Shown: positions 1 through 63,445 of the stretch, piece by piece
Layout: each line of letters begins with the position of its first letter
Position numbering within the stretch: position 1 is the first letter of the stretch
Assembly: GCF_029227855.1 (NCBI RefSeq)
Contig: NZ_CP074356.1
DNA: 64,000 bases
DNA from: Escherichia coli
GTDB lineage: Bacteria; Pseudomonadota; Gammaproteobacteria; Enterobacterales; Enterobacteriaceae
Strand: one strand, 5' to 3'
Program-made: the position numbers and the translations under genes
Notes under the pieces: generated by a model
Told to the model about the DNA's origin: nothing
What the model saw: the letters and a program-made list of their open reading frames with translations, nothing else
The model's database searches: none

Positions 1-5656
<5,656 letters not shown>

Positions 5657-7035: not shown

Positions 7036-7125
7036 GGAGAGATGCCGGAGCGGCTGAACGGACCGGTCTCGAAAACCGGAGTAGGGGCAACTCTACCGGG
7101 GGTTCAAATCCCCCTCTCTCCGCCA
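7036..7125 (+). tRNA. serU: tRNA-Ser (anticodon CGA); prophage attachment target
   Basis: GGAGAGATGCCGGAGCGGCTGAACGGACCGGTCTCGAAAACCGG...CCCCCTCTCTCCGCCA, 90 nt with long variable arm; its 3' 62 nt are repeated at 63384..63445. Confidence 0.9.
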
Positions 7126-7177: not shown

Positions 7178-8203
7178 TTACTTGGAATATTTTCTTGGAA
7201 TATTTTCAGGTAACGGGACATCAAGTGTCGGTGAAACTTTAACCTTCCTGTCATAGATTAGCACTTGCCCCTCGGTTTTGTGACCAGAGAAAAGTTGCTT
7301 ATCCCGACTGCTTCCTTCATAGTCTGAAATTCCTTTCGCCTTCAGATCATGAAAGGTGAAGTCGGTTAAAATACCTGAAATTTTGCCTGCGCGATTTCTT
7401 GCTTCTACCCACATTTCGTTAAAGCCTTTGTACATATATCGGTTGCCGTACTGATTGCTGATTACATAGGCGGATGTTGGTAACTGTTTTGCTTTTTCGA
7501 TCGCCGCCTGTAATCGTGGACTCCATGCTTTTATCTGTTTTTTTCCTGTTTTCCCTTGCTGGATAAAGATCCCGTCGTTTCCAATCTGCTCCCATTTCAG
7601 CGATAACACATCGGAAACCCTCGCTGCACACAGATAGGCAATTTCCATTGCGATAAAAACAGGAAGAGGTGCAACGCTTAATACTGCCTGGTATTCTTTG
7701 TCGGTTACATATCGTTCGCGGTTTTTGGCCTTGAATTTACTTACACCTGCACATGGGTTAGCCTTCACGTACCCTCGCTCATACCCCCAACTGTAAACGC
7801 GGGACATACTGCTTTTTTCATGGTTGGCTTGCGTTTTACTCTGTTCCCCTCTCTTGTCCATGTATCGACGGATGTGTTCTGGTTTTATGGAATCTGCCGG
7901 CACCTTACCGAATACGGCAAGCAACTTTTTTTGATGTTGCAGATAATCTTTTTGTGTTCTTGGACTGAGGTCACTGTAATAGGCGCTGGCGAGGAATTTT
8001 TCCCACAAGCGACCGAATGTCATTGCACGATCGCGATTATTTACAGTTTCCTCATACTTTTTCCATAAAGCAGCTAAACCATCCTTGATGGCGGTTAGTG
8101 TTACAGATTCTCTGGATGTTGGTTTCCATACATAACTATATTTATTTGGGTATACATTTGGAGGTAATTTTTCGTGTTCAGGATTTTTCCTTCGTCTTCC
8201 CAT
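7178..8203 (-). CDS. int: Prophage tyrosine integrase
   Basis: 341-aa ORF next to tRNA-Ser with a lambda-family integrase C-terminal region (..AWSPRLQAAIEKAK.., ..HDLKAKGISDYEGS..). Confidence 0.9.
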   Translation of the reverse strand: MGRRRKNPEHEKLPPNVYPNKYSYVWKPTSRESVTLTAIKDGLAALWKKYEETVNNRDRAMTFGRLWEKFLASAYYSDLSPRTQKDYLQHQKKLLAVFGKVPADSIKPEHIRRYMDKRGEQSKTQANHEKSSMSRVYSWGYERGYVKANPCAGVSKFKAKNRERYVTDKEYQAVLSVAPLPVFIAMEIAYLCAARVSDVLSLKWEQIGNDGIFIQQGKTGKKQIKAWSPRLQAAIEKAKQLPTSAYVISNQYGNRYMYKGFNEMWVEARNRAGKISGILTDFTFHDLKAKGISDYEGSSRDKQLFSGHKTEGQVLIYDRKVKVSPTLDVPLPENIPRKYSK

Positions 8204-32775: not shown

Positions 32776-32907
32776 CTGCTGGTTTTTACACTTAATCTTT
32801 TGATAATAAAGAATAAGTTTATCTGGCGCTTTCACTGAATTTTCCTCGTTATCTGTGTGTTGCAATCATCTCTGTATTGCAGCTTGTATTGCTTTTTGGG
32901 GCTAAAA

Positions 32908-34143: not shown

Positions 34144-34144
34144 C

Positions 34145-34375: not shown

Positions 34376-34382
34376 CTATTAG

Positions 34383-35213: not shown

Positions 35214-35258
35214 GGATTAACACTTTTAATCTATGATATTATAAAAATGGTGGATAAA

Positions 35259-35278
35259 GGCGACCAGAATTGGTCGCC
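35259..35278. terminator. Bidirectional hairpin between convergent cargo genes
   Basis: AGGCGACCAGAATTGGTCGCC perfect inverted repeat. Confidence 0.4.
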
Positions 35279-35344
35279 AATGTGAGTATATAGTTAGCCT
35301 TAATCAGAATACGAGGTTATCGCCTGATAGGCAATGTGAACAGT

Positions 35345-35701
35345 TCAATATTTAGGTGGTTCAACAAGAGCGTTTATCATTGCTCTCAAATTATCGCGAA
35401 CACTTATCCAAGTCTGTTCTGCTCGTTCTAACTCATCAGTGTACAACTTTAATGTTTTATCTATGCCATATGTGGCTATTAAATTTATAGCTTCTTGTAA
35501 TTTTTCAGGATTATTCCTTCTTGGGGGAGTGAATATACCACGGATTTTTCCGGTAATTAAAGCTTTACGGTGTCTACATAGAATACCTTTACTTCCTGCT
35601 GGACAATTACAAGTCATGATTAGCGAGCCAGAATCGTTTGATACAGTGACTATGTATACATCCAAACTACTGCTACTTGTTGCGAAGAATTCGTATTTCA
35701 T
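35345..35701 (-). CDS. Small SWIM-type zinc-finger protein (118 aa)
   Basis: CNCPAGSKGILCRH (CxC..CxH) motif; AT-rich. Confidence 0.55.
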   Translation of the reverse strand: MKYEFFATSSSSLDVYIVTVSNDSGSLIMTCNCPAGSKGILCRHRKALITGKIRGIFTPPRRNNPEKLQEAINLIATYGIDKTLKLYTDELERAEQTWISVRDNLRAMINALVEPPKY

Positions 35702-35728
35702 GTGTTAGCTCCTTGACTTCAATTATTC

Positions 35729-35860
35729 TTATCCTTTTGGTTCAATACCGCGCCGTAGCAGCTCTTTGCGCCCTAATTCTTTAAGCCAGTTGGCTAGGCT
35801 TATGCCGTCGCTCTGCGCTTCTTTGTCGAATTGCTCTTTTAGCTCTGGAGAAATTCGCAT
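35729..35860 (-). CDS. Small ribbon-helix-helix-like protein (43 aa; longer in-frame form to 36043 possible)
   Basis: MRISPELKEQFDKEAQSDGISLANWLKELGRKELLRRGIEPKG; immediately upstream of the SWIM gene on the same strand. Confidence 0.45.
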   Translation of the reverse strand: MRISPELKEQFDKEAQSDGISLANWLKELGRKELLRRGIEPKG

Positions 35861-36059
35861 TCTGAATTGTGGAGATTGCCCATCACCCTTAGGACTTTTA
35901 TCGCGTTTGATCGTTGACAAGTGACCACCTATTGAATTAGCCTTTTCATTGTTAGGTGACCACCTTAACACGGGGGCACTTAAAAAAGCAAAGCCCGAAG
36001 GTGCTGGGAACACCAACGGGCTTCTAACCACCAACGATAGCAACAGTATCGAGGTAGCT

Positions 36060-36263
36060 ATGAGAAATCATACCACACACCCGCAAGGGCGGGACCCGCA
36101 CAACCTGAATAAATACATCTGGCGTTTTATCGCCTTGAGTACGGCACAACCGCGCATGATTACCATCGAGGCCATCAGCGAACAGGAAGCCCGCCAGCAA
36201 TCCCCAACTGGCTGCGTGATGGTATTCGCCGCCCGTATTCGTCAGGAGGTGTGCCGTGCTTAA
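36060..36263 (+). CDS. Small hypothetical satellite protein (67 aa)
   Basis: ATG with GAGG RBS; first of five tightly coupled small genes preceding the primase. Confidence 0.4.
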   Translation: MRNHTTHPQGRDPHNLNKYIWRFIALSTAQPRMITIEAISEQEARQQSPTGCVMVFAARIRQEVCRA

Positions 36264-36441
36264 AACCTTCCGTGTATTTGCCCGAGCTGTTAACCCACTG
36301 GGCCACACAATTGGTATCACTCAGAACGTGAAGGCTGTTAATGTTCAGACGGCTATTGCTGCGGTGAGAAGCGAATCATCAGAATATGGCTTATCACAAG
36401 TCATTATTTCAGCAGTGTATGAATTAAAAGAGGTGCATTAA
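36256..36441 (+). CDS. Small hypothetical satellite protein (61 aa)
   Basis: Track ORF, overlaps neighbours by a few nt. Confidence 0.4.
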   Translation: MLKTFRVFARAVNPLGHTIGITQNVKAVNVQTAIAAVRSESSEYGLSQVIISAVYELKEVH

Positions 36442-36632
36442 TGCAGGAAATCACATTACACGAAGCCGCTGAACGTGCGCACCAGACAGAAATTATTTGC
36501 CGCCTTCTTGAGGTATACCCGAACAAAATTACAGATGCTGATATATCCGCGCTGGCGAGCCTACTGGCGCGCCTTTCGGGAAGTGTCGCTAGTTTCCTGA
36601 TTGAGGAAGAAAGTAAGCTGGTGGGGGATTAA
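36441..36632 (+). CDS. Small hypothetical satellite protein (63 aa)
   Basis: Track ORF, start overlaps upstream stop. Confidence 0.4.
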   Translation: MQEITLHEAAERAHQTEIICRLLEVYPNKITDADISALASLLARLSGSVASFLIEEESKLVGD

Positions 36633-36854
36633 ATGAATACAGAACGGGAAGTCTTTTTTAAATTGTTAGCATGTGCAGAAAGTTCATTAACTTTAAATAA
36701 TTCAGCAAAAGCAATATTAAATATGTGGCTTGATTGCATAAATGACAATGAAGATGCAAATATTGCTTATGGCCTGTTGTCACTTATTGATGAATCAGCA
36801 GAAAAACTCAATGACGCAATAAATAGTGCCCTGCTATCAAATAAGTCGAGTTAA
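36633..36854 (+). CDS. Small hypothetical satellite protein (73 aa)
   Basis: Track ORF. Confidence 0.4.
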   Translation: MNTEREVFFKLLACAESSLTLNNSAKAILNMWLDCINDNEDANIAYGLLSLIDESAEKLNDAINSALLSNKSS

Positions 36855-36871
36855 GTCGAGGAATAAATAAT

Positions 36872-37171
36872 ATGGAAATGAAAAATTCTGGCTTTATTGC
36901 CAGCGGCCCCGCTCGGCCTGAATTTATGAACGGCGATATTTACCGCGATAAATACGGCGGCACGGTAACGATTAAAGGCGTGGCAGAACGGCGCATCACT
37001 TACCGCCGTGAGGGGTATAGCTATGACTGCGTGATGCCTGTTTATCAGTTCCGGCGTGATTTTTCCCTGGTATATGCCGCACCCCGCAGTAAGCCCATCA
37101 GCAGGGAAAAAGCGCGGGGAAACATCCAGAAAATGAAAAGCATGATTAACGCATTCAGGGGCAAAAAATGA
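36872..37171 (+). CDS. Small hypothetical satellite protein (99 aa)
   Basis: Track ORF, stop overlaps primase start. Confidence 0.45.
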   Translation: MEMKNSGFIASGPARPEFMNGDIYRDKYGGTVTIKGVAERRITYRREGYSYDCVMPVYQFRRDFSLVYAAPRSKPISREKARGNIQKMKSMINAFRGKK

Positions 37172-38919
37172 AACTGGCACCGAACTTAAAAAAACAGCCA
37201 CGCGACAGACTGACAGAGGTAATCATCTTTGCAGGTAGTGATGCGTGGAGCCATGCGAAAGAGTGGCGGGAATGGGCGGGTAAACATATTGCCGCCGACG
37301 ATGTGCCGCCTGTCGTGCTGGCTGATGAGCAACTGAAAAATATCACCGATTACCGGATCATTGATGAAGATCGTCAGTGTGTGCGTGTTTACCGCGCAGG
37401 ACATATCACAGAGCACAGCATGACGCAGATTGTTACGTTACTGGCTGTGGCTGGAGTGAAGACCGTACACGAATACGCGGGGATTACTGACACCAGCCCA
37501 GTGGATTTATCCGAGCAGTTGCCGCGACTCAAAGAGGAATGCGAGCGTGGGGAAAGTCTGGTGCTTAATCTTCCGACGAAGCAAAAGGCGCAACTTTCAC
37601 AGATGGCAGACAGTGAACGTGCACAACTACTTGCCGATCGCTTTGATGGTGTGTGTGTTCATGCAGAAAGTGAAATCGTCCACGTATGGCGCGGCGGGGT
37701 ATGGTGTCCGGTCAGCACAATGGAGCTGAGCCGCGAAATGGTGGCGATCTATTCAGAGCACAGGGCCACGTTCAGCAAACGTGTAATCAATAACGCCGTG
37801 GAAGCGTTAAAAGTTATTGCCGACCCCATGGGGGAGCCGTCCGGTGATTTGCTACCGTTCACTAATGGTGTGCTTAACCTGAAAACGGGGGAATTTTCTC
37901 CGCACTCGCCGGAGCACTGGAGCACCACGCACAATGGCATTGAGTACACGCCACCAGTAGCAGGGGAAAACATCCGCGATAATGCGCCAAATTTCCATAA
38001 ATGGCTTGAACATGCTGCAAGAAAAGACCCGCGCAAGATGATGCGTATATGTGCCGCGTTATACATGATTATGGCGAACCGCTACGACTGGCAGATGTTC
38101 ATTGAGGCCACCGGAGACGGGGGAAGCGGTAAGAGTACATTTACCCATATTGCCACCCTGCTTGCTGGCAAACAGAACACCGTAAGCGCGGAGATGACAT
38201 CACTCGATGATGCAGGAGGGCGCGCGCAGGTTGTCGGGAGTCGTCTTATCGTCCTTGCCGATCAGCCGAAATATACGGGGGAAGGCACGGGCATCAAGAA
38301 AATCACGGGAGGCGATCCCGTTGAAATTAACCCGAAATATGAGAAGCGATTCACGACGATAATAAGGGCGGTGGTACTGGCAACCAATAACGACCCGATG
38401 ATCTTTACCGAACGGGCCGGAGGTGTGTCACGCCGTCGGGTGATTTTCCGGTTCGACAACATTGTAAGGGAGGACGAAAAAGACAAGGAATTACCGGAAA
38501 AGATAGCGGCAGAAATCCCCGTAATTATCCGCCGCTTGCTGGCTAATTTTGCTGACCCTGAAAAGGCACGGGCTTTATTACTGGAACAGCGTGACGGTGA
38601 TGAAGCTCTGGCAATAAAGCAGCAAACGGATCCGGTTGTTGAGCTTTGCGCGGCGCTGGAGTTTCTGGAGGAAGCTCGTGGGCTAATGATGGGCGGTGGT
38701 GGTGACACCGTGAAGTACACGACCAGAAACAGCCTTTACCGTGTCTATATGGCCTTCATGGCATACACAGGAAAGGGGAAATGTTTGAGCGTGAATGAGT
38801 TCGGAAAGGCTATGAGGTCAGCGGCGAAAGTTTACGGATATGAATATATTACGCGAAAAGTTAAGGGAGTCACGCAGACCAACGCAACGACTACTGATGA
38901 TTGCGATGCGTTTTTATAA
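37168..38919 (+). CDS. Primase/replicase (P4 alpha / D5-type), 583 aa
   Basis: Walker A GDGGSGKST in the C-terminal half; large N-terminal domain; followed by iterons. Confidence 0.8.
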   Translation: MKLAPNLKKQPRDRLTEVIIFAGSDAWSHAKEWREWAGKHIAADDVPPVVLADEQLKNITDYRIIDEDRQCVRVYRAGHITEHSMTQIVTLLAVAGVKTVHEYAGITDTSPVDLSEQLPRLKEECERGESLVLNLPTKQKAQLSQMADSERAQLLADRFDGVCVHAESEIVHVWRGGVWCPVSTMELSREMVAIYSEHRATFSKRVINNAVEALKVIADPMGEPSGDLLPFTNGVLNLKTGEFSPHSPEHWSTTHNGIEYTPPVAGENIRDNAPNFHKWLEHAARKDPRKMMRICAALYMIMANRYDWQMFIEATGDGGSGKSTFTHIATLLAGKQNTVSAEMTSLDDAGGRAQVVGSRLIVLADQPKYTGEGTGIKKITGGDPVEINPKYEKRFTTIIRAVVLATNNDPMIFTERAGGVSRRRVIFRFDNIVREDEKDKELPEKIAAEIPVIIRRLLANFADPEKARALLLEQRDGDEALAIKQQTDPVVELCAALEFLEEARGLMMGGGGDTVKYTTRNSLYRVYMAFMAYTGKGKCLSVNEFGKAMRSAAKVYGYEYITRKVKGVTQTNATTTDDCDAFL

Positions 38920-38935
38920 AAAATGGCAATGGTTA

Positions 38936-39170
38936 TCTACCTTGTCTACCTGACTGAAAGAAAATACTTTTATTTCAATGTATTAATGCAGGTAGATAAC
39001 TATTTTTCACTGTCTACCTGTTATCTACCTTATCTACCCATTTTTGTAGACAGGTAAGGAGACGGGTAGAGATGAGGTAGACAGCTATTTGGGGCTGTCT
39101 ACCTCCCTGAAACCCGCGCCATTACTGGCCTGATAACTAATCAGGTAGACAAGGTAGACAAGGTGGTGGT
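38936..39170. repeat. Iteron array (putative satellite replication origin)
   Basis: About 12 copies of (A/G)TCTACC / GGTAGA(C/T) in both orientations within ~235 bp. Confidence 0.7.
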
Positions 39171-39208
39171 GCACAAAAAACTTTTTAAACGAGGGGGTAA
39201 AAATAAAA

Positions 39209-39466
39209 ATGCACACTTCAGGAAAACTGAACAAACATATAAAGCCACATTACCGCGCCCTTGATATGGCTGAACACTGGCTAAGGGTGGCGATTAAGGC
39301 AATAGACCGCAACGCCGGGGAAGGATACGCGAAAGCACATCCCGAACTGATAAGCGCATTCATGACAACGGCGGCTGCAAACTTTGCCACGCTGACCGAA
39401 CGGGAGATTGCTGAAGCGGAGGAAGTGACAACAATCAATATTAAGTCCGGAGAGCAGGCAGCATGA
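39209..39466 (+). CDS. Hypothetical satellite protein (85 aa)
   Basis: Track ORF, translationally coupled to the SSB gene. Confidence 0.45.
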   Translation: MHTSGKLNKHIKPHYRALDMAEHWLRVAIKAIDRNAGEGYAKAHPELISAFMTTAAANFATLTEREIAEAEEVTTINIKSGEQAA

Positions 39467-39912
39467 CGGCGCAAATATCAGTTTACGGGCGGTTGGTGGA
39501 CGACCCGCAGACAAAACAGACCAGCAAGGGCACCCCCATGACGCTGGCGCGTATGGCGGTATCACTGCCCTGCAGTCAGTCGGATGACGGTCTGGCGACG
39601 TTGTGGTTATCTGTCCTGGCGTTTGGCAGACAAGCCGACGCGCTGGCAAAGCATCACAAAGGCGAACTCCTGAGCGTGGCGGGTAACATGCAGATGAGCC
39701 AGTGGACTGGACAGAACGGCGAAACGCGGCAGGGCTGGCAGGTTATCGCAGACAGCGTAATCAGTGCGCGATCGGTGCGACCGGGCGGCAAAAAAGGCCA
39801 ACAGGGGCAGGCTACTGACGCACTGAACAGAGCAAAACAACAGGCAGATCAGCAAGGAAGCCAGCCACCAGAGGGAGATAATGAGCAATGGGGAGATGAT
39901 ATCCCGTTTTAA
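39463..39912 (+). CDS. ssb: Single-stranded DNA-binding protein
   Basis: OB-fold-like N-terminus, Gly/Gln-rich linker and acidic C-terminal tail ending DDIPF. Confidence 0.8.
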   Translation: MTAQISVYGRLVDDPQTKQTSKGTPMTLARMAVSLPCSQSDDGLATLWLSVLAFGRQADALAKHHKGELLSVAGNMQMSQWTGQNGETRQGWQVIADSVISARSVRPGGKKGQQGQATDALNRAKQQADQQGSQPPEGDNEQWGDDIPF

Positions 39913-40128
39913 ATATTGCCAATAAAAAAAGCCGGAAAAAATAAATTTTCCGGCATGCTACATAAATCCCGACCAAAGGGAGTGAAGATATTAACACTAA
40001 TTGTCCGCACTGAAGTTGTCACACCAAAACTTTATACAACATTGCACTCGGTTGCATGTGTTCGCATGACAAATATCGGTGATAGCATATATCCACAATT
40101 ATTTTTAATGAATGCAAAGAGGATGCGT

Positions 40129-41169
40129 ATGGTTGATTTATATTCGCCTACTCAGCTTGTACAGGTAGTTAATGCTGTAGATGTACAAAAACAACTAAAT
40201 GCGTTGTTTACCAGTTTGTTTTTTACTCGCTCGGTAATGTTTGAATCGCGCGATATTATTCTTGATACAATCGACGATCCAAATATCCCAATTGCAGCGT
40301 TTTGTTCTCCTATGGTGGGTAGTAAAGTTTCACGTGACGAAGGGTACGAATCAAAAACAATTCGTCCAGGCTATATGAAGCCGAAAAGCAGCATTGATCC
40401 AAATAAGTTAGCTGTGCGCCCTGCTGGTGTGTCACCTGAGCAATACAATGCTTTTGGGGCGCGTAATATTAAAGTTAAACAGGCGATTGTAAATCAGGCT
40501 AAAGCTATTCGTGCACGTATTGAATGGCTTGCTGTTCAGGCAATCACAACGGGGAAAAATATCATTGAGGGCGATGGTATTGAACGTTATGAGCTGGACT
40601 GGAATATAAAACCACAAAATATCATCACTCAGTCTGGCGGTACTGAGTGGTCAGGTAAGGATAAAGAAACTTTTGATCCAAATGATGATATTGAGAGCTA
40701 CGCAGAATTTAGTGAGGGCGTCACTAATATCATCATTATGGGTGGTAATGTATGGAAGAAATACCGTTCATTCAGAGCGATAAAAGAGGCTTTGGATACC
40801 CGTCGTGGTTCTAATTCCGAACTGGAAACGGCCCTTAAAGACCTTGGTGATTCGGTGAGTTTTAAAGGGTATATGGGCGATGTTGCGATTGTTGTTTACA
40901 GCGGGCGTTATACCGACGAGGACGGAACAGAAAAACATTTCCTTGATCCTGATTTGATGGTGCTTGGCAATACGGCTCTTCAGGGGATTGTCGCCTATGG
41001 CGGTATTCAGGATCCGGAGCTAATCCGAATGGGGCTGACTAAAGCCGAACTTGCACCGAAAAACTATATTGTGCCTGGTGATCCGGCTATTGAATATGTG
41101 CAGACACATTCAGCACCACAGCCAATACCGGCCCGCATCAATCGTTTTGTTACCGTTCGCATTGGCTAA
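40129..41169 (+). CDS. Satellite-encoded major capsid protein, lambda gpE family (346 aa)
   Basis: Collinear similarity to gpE (ITQSGGTEWSGKDKETFDPNDDIESYA..., ..LDTRRGSNSELETALKDLG..GDVAIVVYSGRY..MVLGNT..); start set at MVDLYSPTQ with AGGA RBS. Confidence 0.8.
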   Translation: MVDLYSPTQLVQVVNAVDVQKQLNALFTSLFFTRSVMFESRDIILDTIDDPNIPIAAFCSPMVGSKVSRDEGYESKTIRPGYMKPKSSIDPNKLAVRPAGVSPEQYNAFGARNIKVKQAIVNQAKAIRARIEWLAVQAITTGKNIIEGDGIERYELDWNIKPQNIITQSGGTEWSGKDKETFDPNDDIESYAEFSEGVTNIIIMGGNVWKKYRSFRAIKEALDTRRGSNSELETALKDLGDSVSFKGYMGDVAIVVYSGRYTDEDGTEKHFLDPDLMVLGNTALQGIVAYGGIQDPELIRMGLTKAELAPKNYIVPGDPAIEYVQTHSAPQPIPARINRFVTVRIG

Positions 41170-41178
41170 GGGGGAGCA

Positions 41179-41520
41179 ATGGCTACTCATTACACTGAAC
41201 TCATGGCTGGCACTGAAGCACTGGTGACTACGCTGGGGATATTTTCAGCTAATAAAGGGGTAATTCCTGCATTTACGCCACTGATGCAGGAAGATGCAAC
41301 AGGTGCACTGGTGGTATGGGATGGTTCGAGCGTAGGTAAAGCGGTTTATGTTTCCGCTGTACAAATCGACACCGCGAAAAAAACACAGGCTCAGGTCTAT
41401 AAGACAGGTGTCTTAAATGTTGATGCTCTGAACTGGCCTGAGTCTGTTAAAGAACTGTCAGTAAAGGTTGCAGCGTTTGTTGGCTCAGGTATTTCTGTTC
41501 AGCCGCTGGCTCGTGTGTAA
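41179..41520 (+). CDS. Satellite-encoded head decoration protein, lambda gpD-like (113 aa)
   Basis: Shares THY, TPLM, LVVWDG, YKTG, WPE, AF.G..IS motifs with gpD at matching positions. Confidence 0.7.
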   Translation: MATHYTELMAGTEALVTTLGIFSANKGVIPAFTPLMQEDATGALVVWDGSSVGKAVYVSAVQIDTAKKTQAQVYKTGVLNVDALNWPESVKELSVKVAAFVGSGISVQPLARV

Positions 41521-41531
41521 AGGGGGATACA

Positions 41532-41915
41532 ATGCAGAATGATTACAATGACCTTAAGCCAATTGCCGAAATGATGTACCCGAATCAAGCTGTAGAGGAA
41601 TTAAAAGCTATCGCTGACAAAATGTGTTTAAGCGAGCGCCTTGTTGATATGAATCAGGTGATGGAAATTACAACCCTGAGTCGTCGTACACTGCTAAACC
41701 TTGAGGCTAGTGGAGAGTTCCCGGAGCGTGTGCAGGTTACGGAAGGGCGTAAGGCCTGGTATTTAAGTGAAGTGATCGACTGGATAAATAATATTCCTCG
41801 CGCTTCTGAATATTGCCGCGTACCTGTCCCAAAAAAGCCAGATGCGGCGCTATGCCTCAAGATTGAGCGTGTACGCCGCAATGCACGGGATGGTCGCTAT
41901 AAGCTGATTGGTTGA
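41532..41915 (+). CDS. AlpA/MerR-like winged-HTH protein immediately upstream of the satellite cos
   Basis: 127 aa with HTH (..MNQVMEITTLSRRTLLNLEASGEFPERVQVTEGRKAWYLSEVIDWINN..). Confidence 0.6.
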   Translation: MQNDYNDLKPIAEMMYPNQAVEELKAIADKMCLSERLVDMNQVMEITTLSRRTLLNLEASGEFPERVQVTEGRKAWYLSEVIDWINNIPRASEYCRVPVPKKPDAALCLKIERVRRNARDGRYKLIG

Positions 41916-41939
41916 TGAAATTAGGACCCGCTCTGGCTG

Positions 41940-42145
41940 GCGGGTCCTTTCCGGCGATCCAGAACGTTACGGGGCGTCAGGCGCGCAGTTTTTCGCTATT
42001 TGTGAAAATTTTCCTGTTTAAGGCGTTTCCGTTCTTCTTCGCCGTAACTTAATGTTTTTATTAAAAACACCCCCTAAAAAGAAAGGAAACGACAGGTGCT
42101 AAAAACAGGCTTTTTGGCCTCTGTCGTTTCCTTTCTCTGGTTTTG
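41940..42145 (+). other. Second cos site, belonging to the satellite: altered cohesive-end sequence (GGGCGTCAGGCG at 41972..41983) with lambda-type cosB elements
   Basis: GGGTCCTTTCCGGCGATCC..GTTACG|GGGCGTCAGGCG|CGCAGTTTTTCGCTATTTGTGAAAATTTTCCTGTTTAAGGCGTTTCCGTTCTTCTTCG..GAAAGGAAACGACAGGTG..TCTGTCGTTTCCTTTCTC tracks lambda cos closely. Confidence 0.75.
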
Positions 42146-42481
42146 TTGCCATCCGTCGCGGTCTATCACCAGAAAAAATCTTATCCCTGAGTTGAATCAG
42201 GCCCTATTCAGAAGCGGCCAATAACGCGCCGCTAGCTTCACTTCATAGTTATGGCCTACTTCTGCGCCATTGCAATTGCTTTATGCGCCTTGATGGTGGA
42301 ATATAGAGCAAGCAGTTTGCGAATAACAAAGTTTCATATGTTTTTTGCTGTGTGGCTAGACAACTTTACAGCAGAGTTTTGTGTCAGTTCTTTATGTGTG
42401 CAAGCAAGCTTGAGGGGGAATTACTTCTGGCTGTATCTTTGCTTAAGAACAGCAATAATTTAATCATAAGGAAATGTATAT

Positions 42482-42504
42482 AAGCCTGATTAAATTTCAG
42501 GCTT
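42482..42504 (-). terminator. Hairpin terminator after the TIR gene
   Basis: AAGCCTGA-TTAAATT-TCAGGCTT just 3' of the stop. Confidence 0.4.
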
Positions 42505-42513
42505 ATTGAAATG

Positions 42514-43656
42514 TTAACTCCTTATTAGAGAGTAAATTCCATCCTCTTTAAGGAAGTCTATTACTTCAAAGAATGAGATAAAGAATTCCCAAGAACCAAA
42601 AGCATATGCATGAATTTCGTAAGGTGCAAAATGGAATCTAAATCCATCACTATTTATTGTGAACGAGTCTAAGTTACTATCCATGATACCCGTTGCAAAC
42701 GTACTAATGTCGTCCTCACTTGGTTTTTCACCAGTTTTCTCCCAAAATTCACGAGCTGATTCAGAGATTATTTTTTGTTTTATCTTATTAATCGCTTCTT
42801 GCTCTTTCCCTTCGGTAAATACATCCCATAAACTAAATTTGTATGCGTAGTCATCCTTGGTTATTACGAAATTACTAGTTTCAAAATGACTGTTAGGGTG
42901 TGCTGCTCCCGCACCATACCAATGTACGGAATGAAGGATGCTCATGACATTTTCGTTACAGTATGAGATGTTATAACTTTCATTATAGGAACTAGTGTAA
43001 GTGTGTTTATATTCTTCATCCCAATATGGTGTTCCTGGCCATAGTGATGTGCGTTCAGAAAAAATATGTAAAGCCGCTTTTCCTGAAAAGTAATCACTAA
43101 TGAGTTTTGCTGATTTCGGTAATGTATGGCTTTCAATTCTTGGATATGCTATTTCAATTTCATGCCCTGGGATCTTGTTATATTCTTCCTTGAAAACCTC
43201 GCTGCTAAAGTTAAATGGCCCATAAGTGATACCTTGAGATATTTCAAGTTTTTGTTGCGATGCTGCTAATCTTAAAGATCTAGATAAAATGTCCCAACCA
43301 TCATTTCTCTTAAAATCAATGAATTGGAGCTTGCTTGATATGTAGGCGGGTACTTCGCAATCATCAATAAGTAATGGTATCACGAACACATCATCTGGTT
43401 TGTAATACTTTAGTTTATCAATGGCGTCATTTATTTCGCGGCGAATATAACCATTTTTCTGAGTGCTCACTTTGCTAAGGATAAGGATTATCAAGTTTGA
43501 ATTAGCGAAGTTTTTTTGGATTTCATAATCCCAGTTTACGCCAGCGGGTATATCTTTTACATCCATCCAAGGGGAATATCCTCCACTTTTTAGCCTTTCA
43601 TAGATTTCTTCAGTTATCGTTTCATCTTCTTTTGCATGAGCAAGAAAAATTTTCAT
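42514..43656 (-). CDS. TIR-domain protein with ~250-aa C-terminal domain of unknown function (380 aa); candidate anti-phage defence gene
   Basis: N-terminus MKIFLAHAKEDE...SNLIILILSKVS..YIRREINDAIDK..VIPLLIDD fits the bacterial TIR pattern; AAGGA RBS; AT-rich; between satellite cos and right att repeat. Confidence 0.75.
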   Translation of the reverse strand: MKIFLAHAKEDETITEEIYERLKSGGYSPWMDVKDIPAGVNWDYEIQKNFANSNLIILILSKVSTQKNGYIRREINDAIDKLKYYKPDDVFVIPLLIDDCEVPAYISSKLQFIDFKRNDGWDILSRSLRLAASQQKLEISQGITYGPFNFSSEVFKEEYNKIPGHEIEIAYPRIESHTLPKSAKLISDYFSGKAALHIFSERTSLWPGTPYWDEEYKHTYTSSYNESYNISYCNENVMSILHSVHWYGAGAAHPNSHFETSNFVITKDDYAYKFSLWDVFTEGKEQEAINKIKQKIISESAREFWEKTGEKPSEDDISTFATGIMDSNLDSFTINSDGFRFHFAPYEIHAYAFGSWEFFISFFEVIDFLKEDGIYSLIRS

Positions 43657-43863
43657 TGAATATTCCTTTATAATTTAACTAATTAAGTGAAGGAGGCTTT
43701 ACTTGGCTGTGTTAGAAAAAATTCGGTTTGTTTTTTGTACGATGCCAAGAAGGCTTTTCCCTAACCATGTATTGCAGCATGTATTGCTACGTAATTCTGC
43801 ACCCTCTCATTTATAAAATAAATCTCTGTTAAATCAAGTATCTTTTTTCTATTTGACTCATGT

Positions 43864-43873
43864 AGCCGAAGCA
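43864..43873 (+). repeat. Right copy of 10-bp direct repeat AGCCGAAGCA
   Basis: Identical to 32735..32744; E reading frame resumes immediately after. Confidence 0.6.
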
Positions 43874-56519: not shown

Positions 56520-57119
56520 ATGCGTAAAGTTTGTGCCGCCATTTTTTCCGCAGCCATTTGTCTGGCCGTATCCGGTGCGCCTGCATGGGCATCTGAACAT
56601 CAGTCCACGCTGAGCGCGGGGTATCTTCATGCCTCGACGAACGTTCCCGGCAGCGATGATCTGAACGGGATTAACGTGAAATACCGTTATGAGTTTACGG
56701 ACACACTGGGGATGGTGACGTCATTCAGCTATGCAGGAGACAAGAATCGCCAGCTTACCCGTTACAGCGATACCCGCTGGCATGAAGATTCCGTGCGTAA
56801 CCGCTGGTTCAGCGTGATGGTGGGGCCGTCTGTGCGCGTGAATGAATGGTTCAGCGCGTATGCGATGGCGGGTATGGCTTACAGCCGTGTTTCGACTTTC
56901 TCCGGAGATTATATCCGCGTAACTGACAACAAGGGGAAAACGCACGATGTGCTGACCGGAAGTGATGACGGTCGCCACAGCGACACGTCTCTGGCATGGG
57001 GGGCTGGCGTGCAGTTTAACCCGACCGAATCCGTGGCCATTGATATTGCTTATGAAGGTTCCGGCAGTGGCGACTGGCGCACTGACGGTTTCATCGTGGG
57101 TGTCGGTTATAAATTCTGA
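56520..57119 (+). CDS. lom: Outer-membrane protein Lom (Ail/Lom family)
   Basis: 199 aa with signal peptide and beta-barrel ending ..GVGYKF. Confidence 0.85.
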
Positions 57120-57177: not shown

Positions 57178-59583
57178 GTGGATATGGCAGCAGTAAAAAT
57201 CTCAGGTGTGCTGAAAGATGGTGCGGGAAAACCAATACAGAACTGCACTATTCAACTGAAGGCAAAGCGTAACAGCACCACGGTACTGGTGAACACGGTG
57301 GCCTCTGAAAATCCGGATGAAGCCGGGCGTTACAGCATGGATGTTGAGTATGGCCAGTACAGCGTCACCCTGCTGGTTGAAGGTTTTCCGCCTTCGCATG
57401 CCGGGACCATTACCGTCTATGAAGGTTCCAGACCAGGTACGCTGAATGATTTTCTCGGTGCCATGACGGAAGAGGATGTCATGCCGGAGGCATTGCGCCG
57501 TTTTGAGGAAATGGTGGAAGAAGCGGCACGCAACGCCGAAGCCGCCTCTCAGAGCGCAGCGGCGGCAAAGAAATCCGAAACGGCTGCGGCATCATCGAAG
57601 AACGCGGCGAAAACCTCAGAAACGAATGCAGCTAATAGTGCACAGGCGGCAGCGACCTCAAAGACTGCATCGGCAAACTCCGCGACAGCAGCCAAAAAAT
57701 CAGAAACCAACGCGAAAAATAGCGAGACAGCCGCAAAGACGAGCGAAACCAACGCAAAGTCCAGCCAGACGGCAGCGAAAACCAGCGAAACGAATGCCAA
57801 AGCCAGTGAAACTGCGGCAAAAAACAGCCAGGTTGCAGCAGCCCAAAGCGAGAGCGCGGCAGCCGGTTCTGCGACTTCAGCAGCTGGATCAGCAACTGCT
57901 GCGGCTAACAGCCAGAAAGCTGCGAAGACGAGTGAAACTAACGCAAAGTCCAGCCAGACGGCAGCGAAGACCAGCGAAACGAATGCCAAAGCCAGCGAAA
58001 CTGCGGCGAAAAACAGCCAGGTTGCAGCAGCCCAAAGCGAGAGCGCGGCAGCTGGTTCTGCAAGCGCGGCGGCTGCTTCTGCCACTGCATCAGCCAACAG
58101 TCAAAAAGCGGCAAAAACCAGTGAAACCAATGCAAAGACAAGCGAGACTGCAGCGGCGAACTCGGCGAAAGCATCGGCAGCAAGCCAGACAGCAGCTAAA
58201 GCAAGTGAAGACGCAGCCAGAGAGTATGCAAGTCAGGCAGCAGAGCCGTATAAATATGTCTTACAGCCACTGCCTGATGTGTGGATACCGTTTAACGATT
58301 CACTGGATATGATTACGGGCTTTTCGCCGTCATATAAAAAAATTGTTATTGGTGATGATGAAATAACGATGCCTGGCGACAAGGTTGTTAAGTTTAAACG
58401 CGCATCAACTGCCACATATATCAATAAATCAGGCGTATTTAGTGTTGCTAAAATTGATGAGCCACGATTTGAAAAAGAAGGTTTATTGATTGAAGGACAG
58501 CGCACTAACTATTTTGTTAAATCCAATACTCCCGCTGAATGGACGAGTACCAGCAATATCGATAAAACTAATAATGGTGTTGATGAATTTGGTTTTTCAT
58601 ATGCCAAAATGCGAACAAAAGATAATATGACAGGACAATCATCTGCACTTAGTCTGCATACATGCAGTGCATCCCGGGGGATTGATGTTAGTGGCGATAA
58701 TAAGTATTGCACTGTTTCATGCAGGGTTAAAGCTCCTGATGGTCTTCGTTGTCGTTTGCGTTTTGAAAAATACGATGGGTCGGTTTATACATTTTTAGGA
58801 GATGCTTATTTAACTTTCGGAACTCTGATAATAGAAAAAACTGGCGGAGCAGCCAATAGAATAGCAGCTACTGCAACTAAAGATCCGGTTACAGGGTGGA
58901 TTTTCTATGAGGCAACTATAGAAGCTGTTGAAGGTGAAGCCTTAATTGGCGCAATGATTCAGTATGCGCCGAAAAAAGGTGGTATAACTGAAGCGGGAGA
59001 TTATATTTACCTTGCAACACCACAATTTGAAAACGGCGGATGTGCTTCATCTTTTGTTATTACGACAACTGCACCCGCAACCCGCTCCAGTGATATGGTG
59101 ACGATCCCAACTGAAAATAATATCTATAATAGACCGCTTACGTGTCTTGTCGAGGTCAATAGAAATTGGGGCGATATTCCTCCTAATGTAGCACCGCGTA
59201 TTTTTGATTTTTCTGGTGTGCCACCTATTGAGTCAATTACATACGCTTTTAACACAACTGAGAAATATTACGGTCAGCTTTATATACAAACTTATAAAGC
59301 GTCGACAAGTACTTACGTTTCTAGTGTGTTTGCTGGTCGAACTGATGTTCGAAAATTCATTGGTGGTTTTAATATTTATTCTGATGGTACTAAACGAGTA
59401 GTTTCTAACGGTGAGGCTACTAAAACTATGAAAACGGAGTGGACGGGCGTAAAAACACGGACCTTTATTCGAATTGGAGGTCAAGCCACATCGGGAACTC
59501 GTCATCTATTCGGCCATTTGAGAAATCTTCGTCTCTGGCATAAAGAATTAACTGATGCGCAAATGGGGGAGAGTATTAAATGA
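57178..59583 (+). CDS. stf: Side tail fibre protein with internal tandem repeats
   Basis: 801 aa; lambda Stf-like N-terminus; Ser/Ala/Thr-rich repeats; lower-GC C-terminal domain. Confidence 0.8.
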   Translation: MDMAAVKISGVLKDGAGKPIQNCTIQLKAKRNSTTVLVNTVASENPDEAGRYSMDVEYGQYSVTLLVEGFPPSHAGTITVYEGSRPGTLNDFLGAMTEEDVMPEALRRFEEMVEEAARNAEAASQSAAAAKKSETAAASSKNAAKTSETNAANSAQAAATSKTASANSATAAKKSETNAKNSETAAKTSETNAKSSQTAAKTSETNAKASETAAKNSQVAAAQSESAAAGSATSAAGSATAAANSQKAAKTSETNAKSSQTAAKTSETNAKASETAAKNSQVAAAQSESAAAGSASAAAASATASANSQKAAKTSETNAKTSETAAANSAKASAASQTAAKASEDAAREYASQAAEPYKYVLQPLPDVWIPFNDSLDMITGFSPSYKKIVIGDDEITMPGDKVVKFKRASTATYINKSGVFSVAKIDEPRFEKEGLLIEGQRTNYFVKSNTPAEWTSTSNIDKTNNGVDEFGFSYAKMRTKDNMTGQSSALSLHTCSASRGIDVSGDNKYCTVSCRVKAPDGLRCRLRFEKYDGSVYTFLGDAYLTFGTLIIEKTGGAANRIAATATKDPVTGWIFYEATIEAVEGEALIGAMIQYAPKKGGITEAGDYIYLATPQFENGGCASSFVITTTAPATRSSDMVTIPTENNIYNRPLTCLVEVNRNWGDIPPNVAPRIFDFSGVPPIESITYAFNTTEKYYGQLYIQTYKASTSTYVSSVFAGRTDVRKFIGGFNIYSDGTKRVVSNGEATKTMKTEWTGVKTRTFIRIGGQATSGTRHLFGHLRNLRLWHKELTDAQMGESIK

Positions 59584-59861
59584 AAGATTTAACACTCAAA
59601 TTTGCAGACAGGGCCGACTTTTCGGCCTTTATGGAGAGCATTGGCTATTATGATGACGAGTCGATGCAGGATGATATTCTTATTGACGTGATAGGTAATG
59701 TGTACAAAGAAACCGGAGAACTGACTGAAGATGGCGAACCGGTATGTGTTAAGGAAGACGGATATTTTGTAAACGTGCGCATCATTAATGATTCGCAAAT
59801 ATCGTCAATATTCGATGAATACGTGGTTGCTGTTGAGCATCAACTTCGTGGCTGGATGTGA
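59580..59861 (+). CDS. Hypothetical tail-fibre-associated protein (93 aa)
   Basis: Start overlaps the stf stop. Confidence 0.45.
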   Translation: MKDLTLKFADRADFSAFMESIGYYDDESMQDDILIDVIGNVYKETGELTEDGEPVCVKEDGYFVNVRIINDSQISSIFDEYVVAVEHQLRGWM

Positions 59862-59870
59862 GGAAGAAAA

Positions 59871-60911
59871 ATGGCTACATCGACAGTAATTCCTGATGAC
59901 ATCAAAACGCTAAAATCCGACGTTAGCAAATTAAAAAACGATCAAGGAAGCTACGCAACAAAATTATATGTAGACAGCAAAGATGAAATCGTTGGTGACT
60001 GGTCTGTTTCATGGTATCAGCAGGTATTGCCAACTAGCGGAGCTATATTTGGGAGAAAACTCCGCTCAACTCACAGGACGGCAGGTGTTGAGGATGCGTA
60101 TTGCGAACTATACCTCAAAAAATGGATAGACAGTCCAGGTAACGCAATGGCGCGCCTTAACCTGAACGATAACGGGACAAACATTTGCTGGGACTTTACC
60201 AACCTTTATGGCGGTACGATGATTTTTCCCGGTGACAGCGGATACCTCAAAATGGGTAACTGCCTTATGTCATACAGCAAGCGTGGAAGTAACGCGCTTA
60301 TTAAATTTGATTACACCGACACATTACAGATCAAATATGCCAATCATGGGTCAACCATGACATTAAACACACAGGGAACCGCTTATGCTGGTGTTACTGC
60401 TCAATTGTGGGGCAACTCCAGCCGTCCTGTTGTTTATGAAGTCGGTGTTGATGGTGGCGCTTATATGTTCTATGCGCAGAAAAATACCGATAACACCTAT
60501 ATGTTAAGCGTTAATGGTGCATGTCATGCCACCGCATTTAACCAGCATTCCGACCGGGATCTGAAAGACAACATTCAGGTGATCGATAATGCAACCGACC
60601 GCATCCGTAAAATGAACGGCTATACATACACGCTTAAAGAAAACGGTATGCCCTATGCTGGTGTCATTGCACAGGAAGCTCTGGAAGCAATCCCAGAAGT
60701 TGTAGGTTCCGCAATGAAATATCAGGACGGTGCGAGCGGATCGGAAGGTGAAGAAGGTGAACGTTATTACACAGTAGATTATTCTGGTGTTACTGGCTTG
60801 CTTGTTCAGGTAGCCAGAGAGTCAGACGACAGAATAACAGCACTGGAAGAAGAAAACGCAGAATTAAGACAAAGATTATCTGCAATTGATGCGGCGCTTG
60901 CGTCTAAATAA
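59871..60911 (+). CDS. Second tail fibre/spike protein with C-terminal intramolecular-chaperone (S74-like) domain
   Basis: C-terminus ..HQHSDRDLKDNIQVIDNATDRIRKMNGYTYTLKENGMPYAGVIAQEALEAIPEVV.. resembles the autoproteolytic chaperone module. Confidence 0.65.
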   Translation: MATSTVIPDDIKTLKSDVSKLKNDQGSYATKLYVDSKDEIVGDWSVSWYQQVLPTSGAIFGRKLRSTHRTAGVEDAYCELYLKKWIDSPGNAMARLNLNDNGTNICWDFTNLYGGTMIFPGDSGYLKMGNCLMSYSKRGSNALIKFDYTDTLQIKYANHGSTMTLNTQGTAYAGVTAQLWGNSSRPVVYEVGVDGGAYMFYAQKNTDNTYMLSVNGACHATAFNQHSDRDLKDNIQVIDNATDRIRKMNGYTYTLKENGMPYAGVIAQEALEAIPEVVGSAMKYQDGASGSEGEEGERYYTVDYSGVTGLLVQVARESDDRITALEEENAELRQRLSAIDAALASK

Positions 60912-60938: not shown

Positions 60939-61247
60939 TTGGGTAGGATGAAAATGGATATAACACCTTTCCTTCATGCGCTTTGTGCTGTGGCTGCGCA
61001 GCTACTGATTGGTCTTTTTACCGGGAACTGGGCTTACGGGGCGATAGCCGGTTGTACGTTCTTCATTGCGCGTGAACACACCCAGGCAGAATATCGCTGG
61101 ATCGAAATGTTCGGGCATGGCAAGCGAATGAATATGCCGTGGTGGGGCGGTTTTGATCCACGCGCGTGGGATGTGGCAAGCCTGATGGATTTTGCTGTGC
61201 CGGTGGTGGCGTGTCTGCTGGTCTGGCTGTTGGTTAATCGTGGGTGA
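60939..61247 (+). CDS. Hypothetical membrane protein (102 aa)
   Basis: Two predicted TM helices. Confidence 0.4.
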
Positions 61248-61386
61248 AAAAAGGTGGGCTGTATATGCAACGGAGGAAGAAACCACGTTGCTGGAAGCCT
61301 GGAAGAAGTATCGGGTGTTGCTGAACCGTGTTAATACAACAACTGCACCGGATATTGAATGGCCAACAGTACCCATTATCGAATAG
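61240..61386 (+). pseudogene. tfa: Tail fibre assembly protein (Tfa) C-terminal remnant
   Basis: ..[34 protein letters not shown] matches the conserved Tfa C-terminus; no N-terminal region. Confidence 0.5.
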
Positions 61387-61459
61387 TGCATTACGAACTG
61401 CAGGATATTATATGGGATAATATTCTGCAGTTTATTGGGGCTGTATTTTAAAAAGGTGT

Positions 61460-62791
61460 TTATTTTGAGTGAATTATCACCTTGTTTTTTCCGGTTCTTT
61501 TGGCTTGATATAACGCTTTGTCGGCATTGACTAACATTTCAGATGGACTGAGATTATTCTCTTTTGAAGCAAAGCAACCAATACTGACAGTTATTTTCTC
61601 AGGTCCATGCGATAATAATTTTTCCGAGCATTGCTCTTCAATGTTTTTTCTGATTCGCTCTGCAATTGATAGCAAGAGTTTTTGAGTATTACCTTTAATG
61701 ATAATACCGAACTCCTCACCGCCTAAGCGCCCTAATATATCCTCTTTCCTGATGGATTTTTTTATTATTCTGGTAACCATTACTATGACTTGATCACCCA
61801 TATGATGCCCCCATTTGTCATTGATGCTTTTGAAACTGTCAATATCTAACATTATTACTGAGAAATCATGGTGTTTTGATATATTCTTCAATGAGTCAAT
61901 AAAGTATCTTCTATTGTATGTATTCGTTAGTGGATCATGAATTGCCATATGATTAGCATGATTTAATTTCCTGAAAACATAATACATGAGTGTTGAAATG
62001 ATATAAATCATTGATATCAATTCAAGAAATTTTGTCATGTACCATGCAGGATGGGATTTATCAATAAAATACAATAAAATTAGATTATTGCATACTGACA
62101 CTATACTAATAAGTATTATACACAACCATATTTTTGAGTAATTACGTATGCTGATGCATGAGCTGATAAGTAATACAAGCCAAAATACTGATATTATTTT
62201 GGTGTACACGATATTCCACGTCGACAAATGACGATTCAGCGAGTATTGTATAATATTAAGACTATATTTTATATGGTCACTGCTTAGATTTTTTGCTACA
62301 AACGGAGTAATAAAAAGAATTAATATTGACAAAACAACAATTATTATGTTTCTTTTATCTTCTAAAATACTTTTATTTTTAACATTGGTGGAATAAACAG
62401 CCAGAAAGATTATAGATATAAAGCTGAACTGACGGAATAGATAATATATTGCGATATCATTTGATTTCTGATAGATTGTAGATAAATCGTTACCTAACGG
62501 AGATAAAGAAATAATAGCCACTTCTAATAAATAATACGTGTTGCTCAAAAACGCGAATGAAAGAATTAAGAGATAACTTTGTCTCTGATTAGAAACATAG
62601 TAAAGCAATAGAAAAATAAAAATCATCAGGTTTATGAAAAAAAGCCCAATAATGAAAACACTATAACTTATTTGTGTTGTTTGTGTTATGTATATTCCAT
62701 TATTTTCATGCAGTAACAAAAATATAATAGAGATGCATGAAAATAAAAAGATGAAGATTTTTATTTTTATAGGTACCTGGTTGATAATCAT
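61460..62791 (-). CDS. Membrane-anchored diguanylate cyclase (GGDEF domain), AT-rich moron at prophage right end
   Basis: N-terminal multi-TM region; C-terminal GGDEF with RLGGEEFGII active-site motif. Confidence 0.8.
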   Translation of the reverse strand: MIINQVPIKIKIFIFLFSCISIIFLLLHENNGIYITQTTQISYSVFIIGLFFINLMIFIFLLLYYVSNQRQSYLLILSFAFLSNTYYLLEVAIISLSPLGNDLSTIYQKSNDIAIYYLFRQFSFISIIFLAVYSTNVKNKSILEDKRNIIIVVLSILILFITPFVAKNLSSDHIKYSLNIIQYSLNRHLSTWNIVYTKIISVFWLVLLISSCISIRNYSKIWLCIILISIVSVCNNLILLYFIDKSHPAWYMTKFLELISMIYIISTLMYYVFRKLNHANHMAIHDPLTNTYNRRYFIDSLKNISKHHDFSVIMLDIDSFKSINDKWGHHMGDQVIVMVTRIIKKSIRKEDILGRLGGEEFGIIIKGNTQKLLLSIAERIRKNIEEQCSEKLLSHGPEKITVSIGCFASKENNLSPSEMLVNADKALYQAKRTGKNKVIIHSK

Positions 62792-63383
62792 GTACGCACC
62801 TGAGAATGATATATATATAATATGTATCGCTACAAATAACGATAATTTCTTACTGGTGATAGTATACTATTATTCTGGTTAATCGCTGTCAAATTGATGA
62901 TTTTGGTTAGTATTGCAATAGCGAAGGGTTTGATCCGGTAAGACTGGCTAGGCAAGGCTATACCAAAAAATCAGTGTAGGTTCAGAAAACGATGCACCAT
63001 ACAATCATCAATAATTTCAAATTGTCCATTGTGCATAAATCATAAAGAAAACCGCAGCACGTCGTATGCAAGAACGTGCTGCGGTTGGCTGGTGAGCTTT
63101 CGATAGTGCGAGTATTGAATGATTTCCAGACGTTACCGATTTTATATAACTGCAGTGGAATTATTCAACACACAGGCAAAACGGAATAAGCTGAGAAAAA
63201 AGCGTGCTTTCCCAATCTGGGGCAAATCACGTCTGAATGACACCTGAAAACAGGTGGTAGCCTCAAGAAGGCTTGGAATATTCTTCTTTAATGTTATGTA
63301 ATTCATTGATTTTTCTTGTACGATTTTAAGACATTTATTCCAAGAAAAATTTTTAACTCTTTGATTTTTCGACTCTGTATCAT

Positions 63384-63445
63384 CGGTCTCGAAAACCGGA
63401 GTAGGGGCAACTCTACCGGGGGTTCAAATCCCCCTCTCTCCGCCA
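63384..63445 (+). repeat. Prophage right attachment site: 62-bp copy of the serU 3' end
   Basis: CGGTCTCGAAAACCGGAGTAGGGGCAACTCTACCGGGGGTTCAAATCCCCCTCTCTCCGCCA identical to 7064..7125. Confidence 0.85.

Follow-up and report, generated by a model that had tools for sequence, protein, structure and literature searches.

An open reading frame (ORF) near the right end of the window, by which we mean the whole 64,000-nt stretch of Escherichia coli DNA analyzed here, was identified with a probability of roughly 90% as dgcX, which encodes an accessory inner-membrane diguanylate cyclase (DGC) and is carried as a moron in an ea47-slot module of a lambda-like serU prophage. The ORF, at 61460-62791 on the minus strand, was confirmed and is an allele of a gene that is already described, and both dgcX and its link to prophages have been known since 2014. 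Richter et al. 2014 presented DgcX as an extra, prophage-adjacent DGC of the 2011 O104:H4 outbreak strain; they described the protein as hydrophobic over about 270 residues at its N terminus, with the A-site and the I-site intact (PMC4287979). The added value of the window is small, and it opens no new question; its increments are a fourth integration site, exact module edges, homology to the ea47 slot of lambda, counts across the population, and a corrected transfer model. Taken together, the att repeats, the motifs, the domains, and the base composition rule out a chance origin.

For the O104:H4 strain of the 2011 outbreak, with its strong adherence and curli phenotype, a contribution of DgcX to these traits has been proposed; the enzyme is one of few in second-messenger metabolism known on prophages. 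PGAP goes no further than "sensor domain-containing diguanylate cyclase" for this gene, and calling it dgcX is therefore useful for annotation. A 2016 survey of accessory GGDEF/EAL genes by Povolotsky and Hengge reportedly has both dgcX and dgcY among them.

Identity with DgcX of O104:H4

The earlier note on this DNA had proposed a comparison with known accessory E. coli cyclases, and this comparison led to dgcX: the predicted protein differs from DgcX of HUSEC2011 (O104:H4) at only 7 of 443 residues (436 identical residues; 98.4%). The substitutions (window residue first, I142V, H173N, I194T, K245Q, S319N, A408T, and I440T) spare the catalytic motifs; S319, which is N in O104:H4, adjoins the DID metal-binding motif and stands just after it. 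At the nucleotide level, the module (61266-63144) is 99.1% identical to that of HUSEC2011 over 1,879 nt. Furthermore, three of the four published dgcX primers (PMC4287979, Table S3) could be placed in the window, at the positions that their names imply. Primer dgcX-u-18 matches 62779-62800 across the ATG and primer dgcX-d-(-62) matches 62818-62842, both with 0 mismatches, and primer dgcX-u-1310 matches 61463-61481 with 1 mismatch. The published dgcX -412 primer has no match in the window, because the module ends 356 bp upstream of the ATG; its target is present in the lambda-attB context of the outbreak strain. The two glutamates of the GGEEF motif are numbered E359 and E360, as they also are in the published DgcX mutants (PMC10459773).

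DgcX of O104:H4/EAEC 55989 and the window protein share the MASE4-GGDEF architecture, the A-site, the I-site, and the 1.88-kb module. In O104:H4, too, dgcX is positioned after the tail-fiber genes of a lambdoid prophage, and the promoter-like hexamers are identical. The carriers differ, however: the carrier phage is integrated at serU in the window but at lambda attB in O104:H4, and the window prophage has other tail-fiber genes and only a truncated tfa.

Domain architecture, catalytic motifs, and K-12 relatives

Pfam analysis assigned residues 40-274 of the product to MASE4 (PF17158; E = 3e-35) and residues 283-437 to GGDEF (PF00990; E = 4.7e-44). The multi-TM N terminus that the earlier note had proposed was borne out by this MASE4 assignment and by hydropathy analysis, which revealed about 7 to 8 hydrophobic segments within residues 1-274. 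Against the NCBIfam GGDEF model TIGR00254, the product scored 162 bits (cutoff, 37). This domain model was the only NCBIfam model above its cutoff, and NCBIfam is without an equivalog model for DgcX.

A GGDEF protein with an intact RLGGEEF motif had also been claimed, and this description holds. The A-site GGEEF is found at residues 357-361, inside GRLGGEEF, and an RxxD I-site (RKED, residues 348-351) is located five residues before it. In an alignment with PleD, residues D316, N324, D333, R355, and K431 of DgcX correspond to D327, N335, D344, R366, and K442, respectively, and the GGEEF motif and the I-site are kept. In PleD, the established roles of such residues are metal binding by Asp, base binding by Asn and Asp, and phosphate binding by Lys. 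The AT richness of the gene noted previously was confirmed as well: the GC content of dgcX is 29.7%, versus 49.7% for the remaining prophage and 49.2% for the chromosomal flank.

The full-length MASE4-GGDEF architecture is also present in two K-12 proteins, DgcT (YcdT; 37% identity over 408 aa) and CdgI (YeaI; 38% identity over 426 aa). DgcT keeps GGEEF and RxxD, while the A-site of CdgI is degenerate. Both are encoded by core chromosomal genes, whereas dgcX is AT rich, accessory, and phage linked. DgcT is weakly expressed (Richter et al., PMC4287979). Homologs with more than 50% identity to DgcX all belong to Escherichia and form clusters at about 98, 85, 81-83, 67, and 51-52% identity; they are followed by Citrobacter homologs with 41-43% identity.

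The carrier prophage and its ends

The features of the prophage and of the dgcX region are compiled in Table 1. The gene lies inside an att-bounded element, 592 bp from the attR core and after J, lom, and the tail-fiber genes. This is in line with the earlier placement of the gene between the tail-fiber genes (57178-60911) and attR. In genomes whose serU is unoccupied, similarity to the window restarts at exactly 63384, the first position of the attR core. The att-proximal arm that separates the module from this core is common to dgcX-less serU prophages and absent from dgcX modules elsewhere.

Table 1. Features of the serU prophage and the dgcX region (positions in the window)
Feature	Position	Strand	Remarks
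tRNA-Ser(CGA) gene serU	7036..7125	plus	ARAGORN
attL core, 3' 62 nt of serU	7064-7125	plus	exact repeat of 63384-63445
Prophage tyrosine integrase gene, beside attL	7178..8203	minus	341-aa ORF; Pfam Phage_integrase at residues 183-317 plus SAM-like domains
lom	56520-57119		in prophage, with J before the tail-fiber genes
stf-like tail-fiber gene	57178-59583	plus	
Small ORF between the tail-fiber genes	59580-59861	plus	
Tail-fiber gene with C-terminal chaperone-type end	59871-60911	plus	
Gene for small hydrophobic phage protein, phrog_1443	60939..61247	plus	last gene common to the dgcX-less sister prophage
tfa remnant, last ~39 codons, left module edge	61267..61386	plus	PGAP pseudogene in identical sequence; PHROG tfa C-terminal matches
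Hairpin, putative terminator	61396..61432		-16 kcal/mol, z = -5.9 (RNA fold)
dgcX, MASE4-GGDEF diguanylate cyclase	61460..62791	minus	443 aa, ATG start
Putative promoter, TTGACA, 17-nt spacer, TAGTAT	62864..62892	minus	10/12 match (consensus scan); ends 73 nt upstream of ATG
14-bp perfect hairpin followed by UUUUCUUUAU	63041..63086	minus	-24.8 kcal/mol, z = -3.4 (RNA fold)
Right module edge, 97-bp b-region piece	63052..63148		89% identical to lambda 24162-24259, between ea47 and ea31 (BLAST)
Phage-specific att-proximal arm	63148..63383		236 bp between module and attR core
attR core, duplicated 3' 62 nt of serU	63384..63445	plus	exact repeat; chromosome resumes

At the other end, the ortholog of the prophage integrase gene in strain 20, a close relative, is frameshifted according to PGAP. 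Farther left, where the window begins, the plus-strand ORFs (107-5447) gave no family match.

A 1.88-kb module in the ea47 slot

The gene is part of a module of 1.88 kb (61266-63147; roughly 30% GC) that comprises the tfa remnant, dgcX, the promoter-like site, and the hairpins. Its edges recur in many other genomes, where the match starts at 61266/61267 (sometimes at 61292) and ends at 63147/63148. BLAST revealed that both edges have counterparts in lambda. The tfa remnant shares 88% identity with the last part of lambda tfa (lambda 22438-22557), and the b-region piece at the right edge, which is also present in HUSEC2011, corresponds to the lambda segment given in Table 1. Between these counterparts, lambda has ea47, oriented like dgcX. 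The module resembles the lambda ea47/b region in slot, strand, approximate size, and homologous flanks on both sides, but the gene content is unrelated. When the O104:H4 prophage is compared with the lambda b region, ea31 and ea59 are missing, and therefore dgcX is its only b-region gene.

Strain MSB1_4E has a sister prophage in serU from which 61233-63078 is absent; about 52 bp stand in its place, and the same small upstream gene and the att-proximal arm are kept. Since presence and absence are clean, the composition is deviant, and the flanks are conserved, the module can be regarded as a typical b-region moron. With the lambdoid morons lom and bor it has in common that it is accessory, deviates in base composition, has a promoter-like site, is bracketed by hairpins, and is polymorphic in presence. 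Like them, dgcX may plausibly be expressed from the prophage and so alter the surface behavior of the host; in contrast to them, it encodes a signaling enzyme acting on a global second messenger and not a surface protein.

The putative dgcX promoter is the best consensus match in the region. Sigma-70-like sites are not in excess there (13, versus 12.6 in shuffled sequences), and because the count is no higher than in the shuffles, the assignment leans on the position of the site and on a published reporter: the match falls inside the -412..+18 lacZ fusion (PMC4287979). The O104:H4 allele agrees with the window in both hexamers and throughout the spacer, and its closest mismatch is at 62894, just outside the site. 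With this pair of hexamers, transcription is predicted to start near 62857. Along the first 356 bp upstream of dgcX, there are 5 differences from the reporter-tested allele, none of them in the -35/-10 match.

Although a terminator scan of the region called no terminator, RNA folding gave two stable hairpins. The first is located within the 73 bp that separate dgcX from the convergent tfa remnant, and on the plus strand TTTATT comes after it. The other, situated upstream of the putative promoter, may act as an intrinsic terminator; leftward transcription coming from yodB or from the int/att side would then be kept out of dgcX. It was missed by the scan because its loop is 9 nt long; the loops or tails of the hairpins are outside the scan rules.

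Distribution and integration sites

The dgcX module was detected in 766 of 5,426 complete E. coli genomes (~14%), the criterion for a carrier being a match to 80% or more of a 1.7-kb query taken from within the module. The junction dgcX-attR-ybhB, which corresponds to the lambda attB site, was found in 593 genomes, and the junction dgcX-sitD at the Rac site in 42. The serU configuration seen in the window is present in 37 complete genomes. In addition, the argW/dsdC region of strain M1 harbors a frameshifted dgcX copy with 90% identity. At every one of the loci, of which there are at least four, the module is accompanied by the tfa remnant. In many carriers the prophage is reduced to a remnant, such as Rac with trkG and the sit genes. 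Lambda attB, Rac, and argW are already published as dgcX sites (PMC4287979, PMC10459773); serU was not found in the published dgcX accounts, as far as the part of the literature covered here goes.

Phage cargo or host DNA

In HUSEC2011, tfa is followed by dgcX, then by the b-region piece, a segment of 272 bp, and ybhB. The 272-bp segment is 89% identical to the P arm and core of lambda attP (GCTTTTTTATACTAA), and in genomes with an empty lambda attB the match restarts at the HUSEC2011 att core, which places dgcX inside attR there too. These right ends bear on a suggestion of Richter et al. 2014 (PMC4287979), according to which dgcX hitchhikes by specialized transduction: it would be host DNA beside a prophage, spread after aberrant excision, and not phage cargo. 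An ancestral chromosomal capture is indeed conceivable, given that a paralog with 67% identity resides in a nonphage chromosomal context near nfrBA-ybcH. However, aberrant excision would set the captured DNA directly on the core and remove the arm, whereas a phage arm is kept beside the att core both at serU (236 bp in the window) and at lambda attB (272 bp of lambda-like P arm in O104:H4). Moreover, lambda-homologous sequence is present on both sides of the module, and at least three different att systems are involved. Simple specialized transduction was therefore rejected, and we consider spread of host DNA in this manner unlikely; at serU and lambda attB, ordinary phage cargo is the better fit to the sequence context. 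Capture of dgcX in the distant past, with later recombination, is conceivable.

The degraded appearance of the prophage (a split capsid gene in the window and the frameshifted integrase gene in strain 20), together with the carriers that hold prophage remnants only, could also suggest that dgcX is a chromosomal core gene, or part of an old island, that borders a prophage by accident. This was the case named in the earlier note as refuting its view of the gene as prophage cargo. The gene is inside the att repeats, however, and the sister prophage at the same site lacks precisely the module, which elsewhere occurs in a minority of genomes (14%), at several loci, and always with the tfa remnant. 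Distribution and att boundaries thus rule out a core gene, an accidental neighborhood is extremely unlikely, and the cargo view of the earlier note stands. Probably, dgcX is an ea47-slot cassette that has been swapped among lambdoid phages by recombination at conserved flanks. Since the edges of the module are conserved among lambdoid phages, it has most likely been passed between phages with different integrases, and recombinational exchange would account for its occurrence at lambda attB, Rac, argW, and serU.

State of the carrier prophage

Comparison with strain 20 revealed an 11.1-kb insertion (32745-43863) inside the major capsid gene of the window prophage, flanked by the 10-bp repeat AGCCGAAGCA. 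The insertion carries genes for an integrase, a primase, SSB, and Icd-like and AlpA-like proteins, as well as its own capsid and decoration homologs, which are 42% and 38% identical to those of the helper. It matches the published helper-embedded PICI "11capE" (PMC10111431). The satellite integrase gene has a premature stop, W154*, at codon 154, while the copy in strain 10 is intact. Probably, the satellite is locked in place and the capsid gene of the helper stays split. With its capsid gene split by a satellite whose integrase is broken, the prophage in the window is probably immobile, and so is its dgcX; in this strain the gene is best seen as the retained cargo of a grounded prophage.

Among 50,697 deposited phage genome records, no dgcX was detected by megablast or tblastn; the latter yielded only remote GGDEF domains, with less than 40% identity and at most 63% coverage. 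This weakens the claim that dgcX travels in virions and leaves the claim of its prophage location unaffected.

Predicted activity and function of DgcX

According to the published work, the dgcX::lacZ fusion (-412..+18) was the strongest of all E. coli DGC fusions, with contributions of both RpoD and RpoS (PMC4287979). Overexpression of DgcX induced cellulose independently of csgD, and this induction was lost in GGEAF and GGAAF mutants; deletion of dgcX in the commensal strain Fec101 caused only a minor phenotype (PMC10459773). By the likeness of its upstream region to that of the reporter-tested allele, the window allele may be strongly expressed, and from its conserved motifs and the mutants of the nearly identical allele, the protein is predicted to be an active cyclase.

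The minor deletion phenotype in Fec101, and the fact that the best-scoring K-12 paralog is CdgI, could be taken to mean that DgcX is instead a degenerate or regulatory GGDEF protein, serving as a c-di-GMP receptor or scaffold as CdgI does. But CdgI has RLEGEVF at the A-site position, whereas DgcX has an unaltered GGEEF motif and, relative to PleD, retains the positions that bind metal, base, and phosphate. In addition, the GGEEF point mutants of DgcX are without the cellulose phenotype (PMC10459773). On the basis of the motifs and the published mutants, a degenerate protein was rejected; we regard such a role as very unlikely and keep to the active cyclase in what follows.

In the proposed mechanism, MASE4, with 6 to 8 transmembrane helices, would control dimerization of the cytoplasmic GGDEF domain, which would convert two GTP to c-di-GMP and would be subject to feedback inhibition via the RxxD I-site. 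Expression of dgcX from the prophage would then enlarge the c-di-GMP pool of the host, and raised c-di-GMP may promote matrix production, namely, of cellulose and, in some backgrounds, also of curli. The earlier note had proposed that the gene modulates host c-di-GMP signaling and biofilm as a lysogenic conversion trait. On the whole, this interpretation is supported. The modulation part agrees with the published dgcX expression and cellulose induction; as the carrier is probably no longer a working phage, lysogenic conversion would here amount to cargo kept by a grounded prophage.

Chromosomal paralogs

The contexts of the paralogs, like those at Rac and argW, were read from annotation or gene tables. 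The paralog with 67% identity is equally AT rich and is located between ybcH-nfrA-nfrB and folD; no phage flanks were found within 7 kb on each side. NfrB carries a c-di-GMP-binding MshEN domain, and the NfrB/NfrA exopolysaccharide machinery is also the receptor pathway of N4-like phages. Because this paralog adjoins ybcH-nfrA-nfrB and NfrB has the MshEN domain, one could speculate that proteins of the DgcX family were originally local c-di-GMP suppliers for NfrB/NfrA. The prophage copy would then remodel a surface glycan and alter the susceptibility to competing phages, rather than act mainly on biofilm; we consider this quite improbable, and the exchanged ea47-slot cassette much more likely. 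The paralog with 51% identity has uspF on one side and the ynaE/pin/tfa/stf end of Rac on the other.

Other locations of dgcX and a prophage end without it

At serU in strain MSB1_4E, a sister prophage end lacks dgcX, the MASE4-GGDEF diguanylate cyclase gene (L011 3290-3341 versus window 61233-63078). There, a different hairpin takes the place of the window's AT-rich dgcX module and is followed by the same att-proximal arm. In strain EC09, dgcX was found at the Rac site, with tfaR on one side and the sitABCD genes for iron/manganese transport on the other (L006 2875-12431). The gene belongs here to a degraded Rac remnant in which trkG is also present; two accessory cargo modules are stacked at a single prophage end.

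DgcX paralogues

An equally AT-rich paralogue (67% identity; 29.9% GC) was detected in CP057162.1 and Logan contigs (L012/L013 7001-8335), flanked by ybcH-nfrA-nfrB on one side and by folD on the other. Neither phage genes nor flanks of the dgcX module were present within the 7 kb read on either side. Since the adjoining NfrB carries a c-di-GMP-binding MshEN domain, a local pairing of diguanylate cyclase and effector may be indicated. Another MASE4-GGDEF paralogue (51% identity; L015 7001-8341), whose cluster comprises 106 sequences, is located at the right-hand end of a Rac-type prophage, flanked by uspF on one side and by ynaM/ynaE/pin/tfa/stf on the other. Linkage to a prophage end therefore extends to a second, diverged family member. 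This paralogue may be the DgcY described in the literature.

A satellite in the capsid gene of the prophage

The serU prophage of the window is itself the host (helper) of an inserted satellite (see the table). Its genes code for an integrase, a primase, an SSB, Icd-like and AlpA-like proteins, as well as capsid and decoration homologues of its own, with 42% and 38% identity, respectively, to the helper's counterparts. The satellite matches a helper-embedded PICI described earlier as "11capE" (PMC10111431), and the satellite-in-capsid configuration is common to 25 complete E. coli genomes. While E. coli strain 10 has an intact copy of the satellite integrase, the gene in the window carries a premature stop. 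Excision of the satellite is therefore probably no longer possible, and the helper capsid gene would consequently stay interrupted.

Features of the window prophage and its satellite
Feature	Position	Remark
PICI-like satellite, 11.1 kb	32745-43863	interrupts the lambda-E-type major capsid gene of the prophage
10-bp repeat AGCCGAAGCA	32735-32744 and 43864-43873	brackets the satellite
Satellite integrase gene	32908-34143	premature stop at codon 154 (W154*)
Two prophage tRNA genes, CAU and Arg(UCU)	20694-20951	3' of the antiterminator gene
Long, near-perfect tandem repeats, Ala/Ser/Thr/Lys-rich (…KTSETNAKSSQTAAKTSETNAKASETAAKNSQVAAAQSESAAAGSA…)	57400-58200	within tail-fibre gene 57178-59583

Other features of the prophage

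The CAU tRNA was called Met by ARAGORN and Ile by PGAP, the latter in the close relative strain 20. Stx phages carry tRNAs at the same position, downstream of the antiterminator gene; in the annotated relative, strain 20, no toxin genes follow the tRNA pair. The tail-fibre tandem repeats give rise to a strong A-over-T skew and to spurious long ORFs in other frames. Furthermore, an early-region segment differs between the window (15542-17215) and strain 20 (L002 25247-28313), the latter containing, besides a hypothetical gene, one for abortive infection of the AbiH family.
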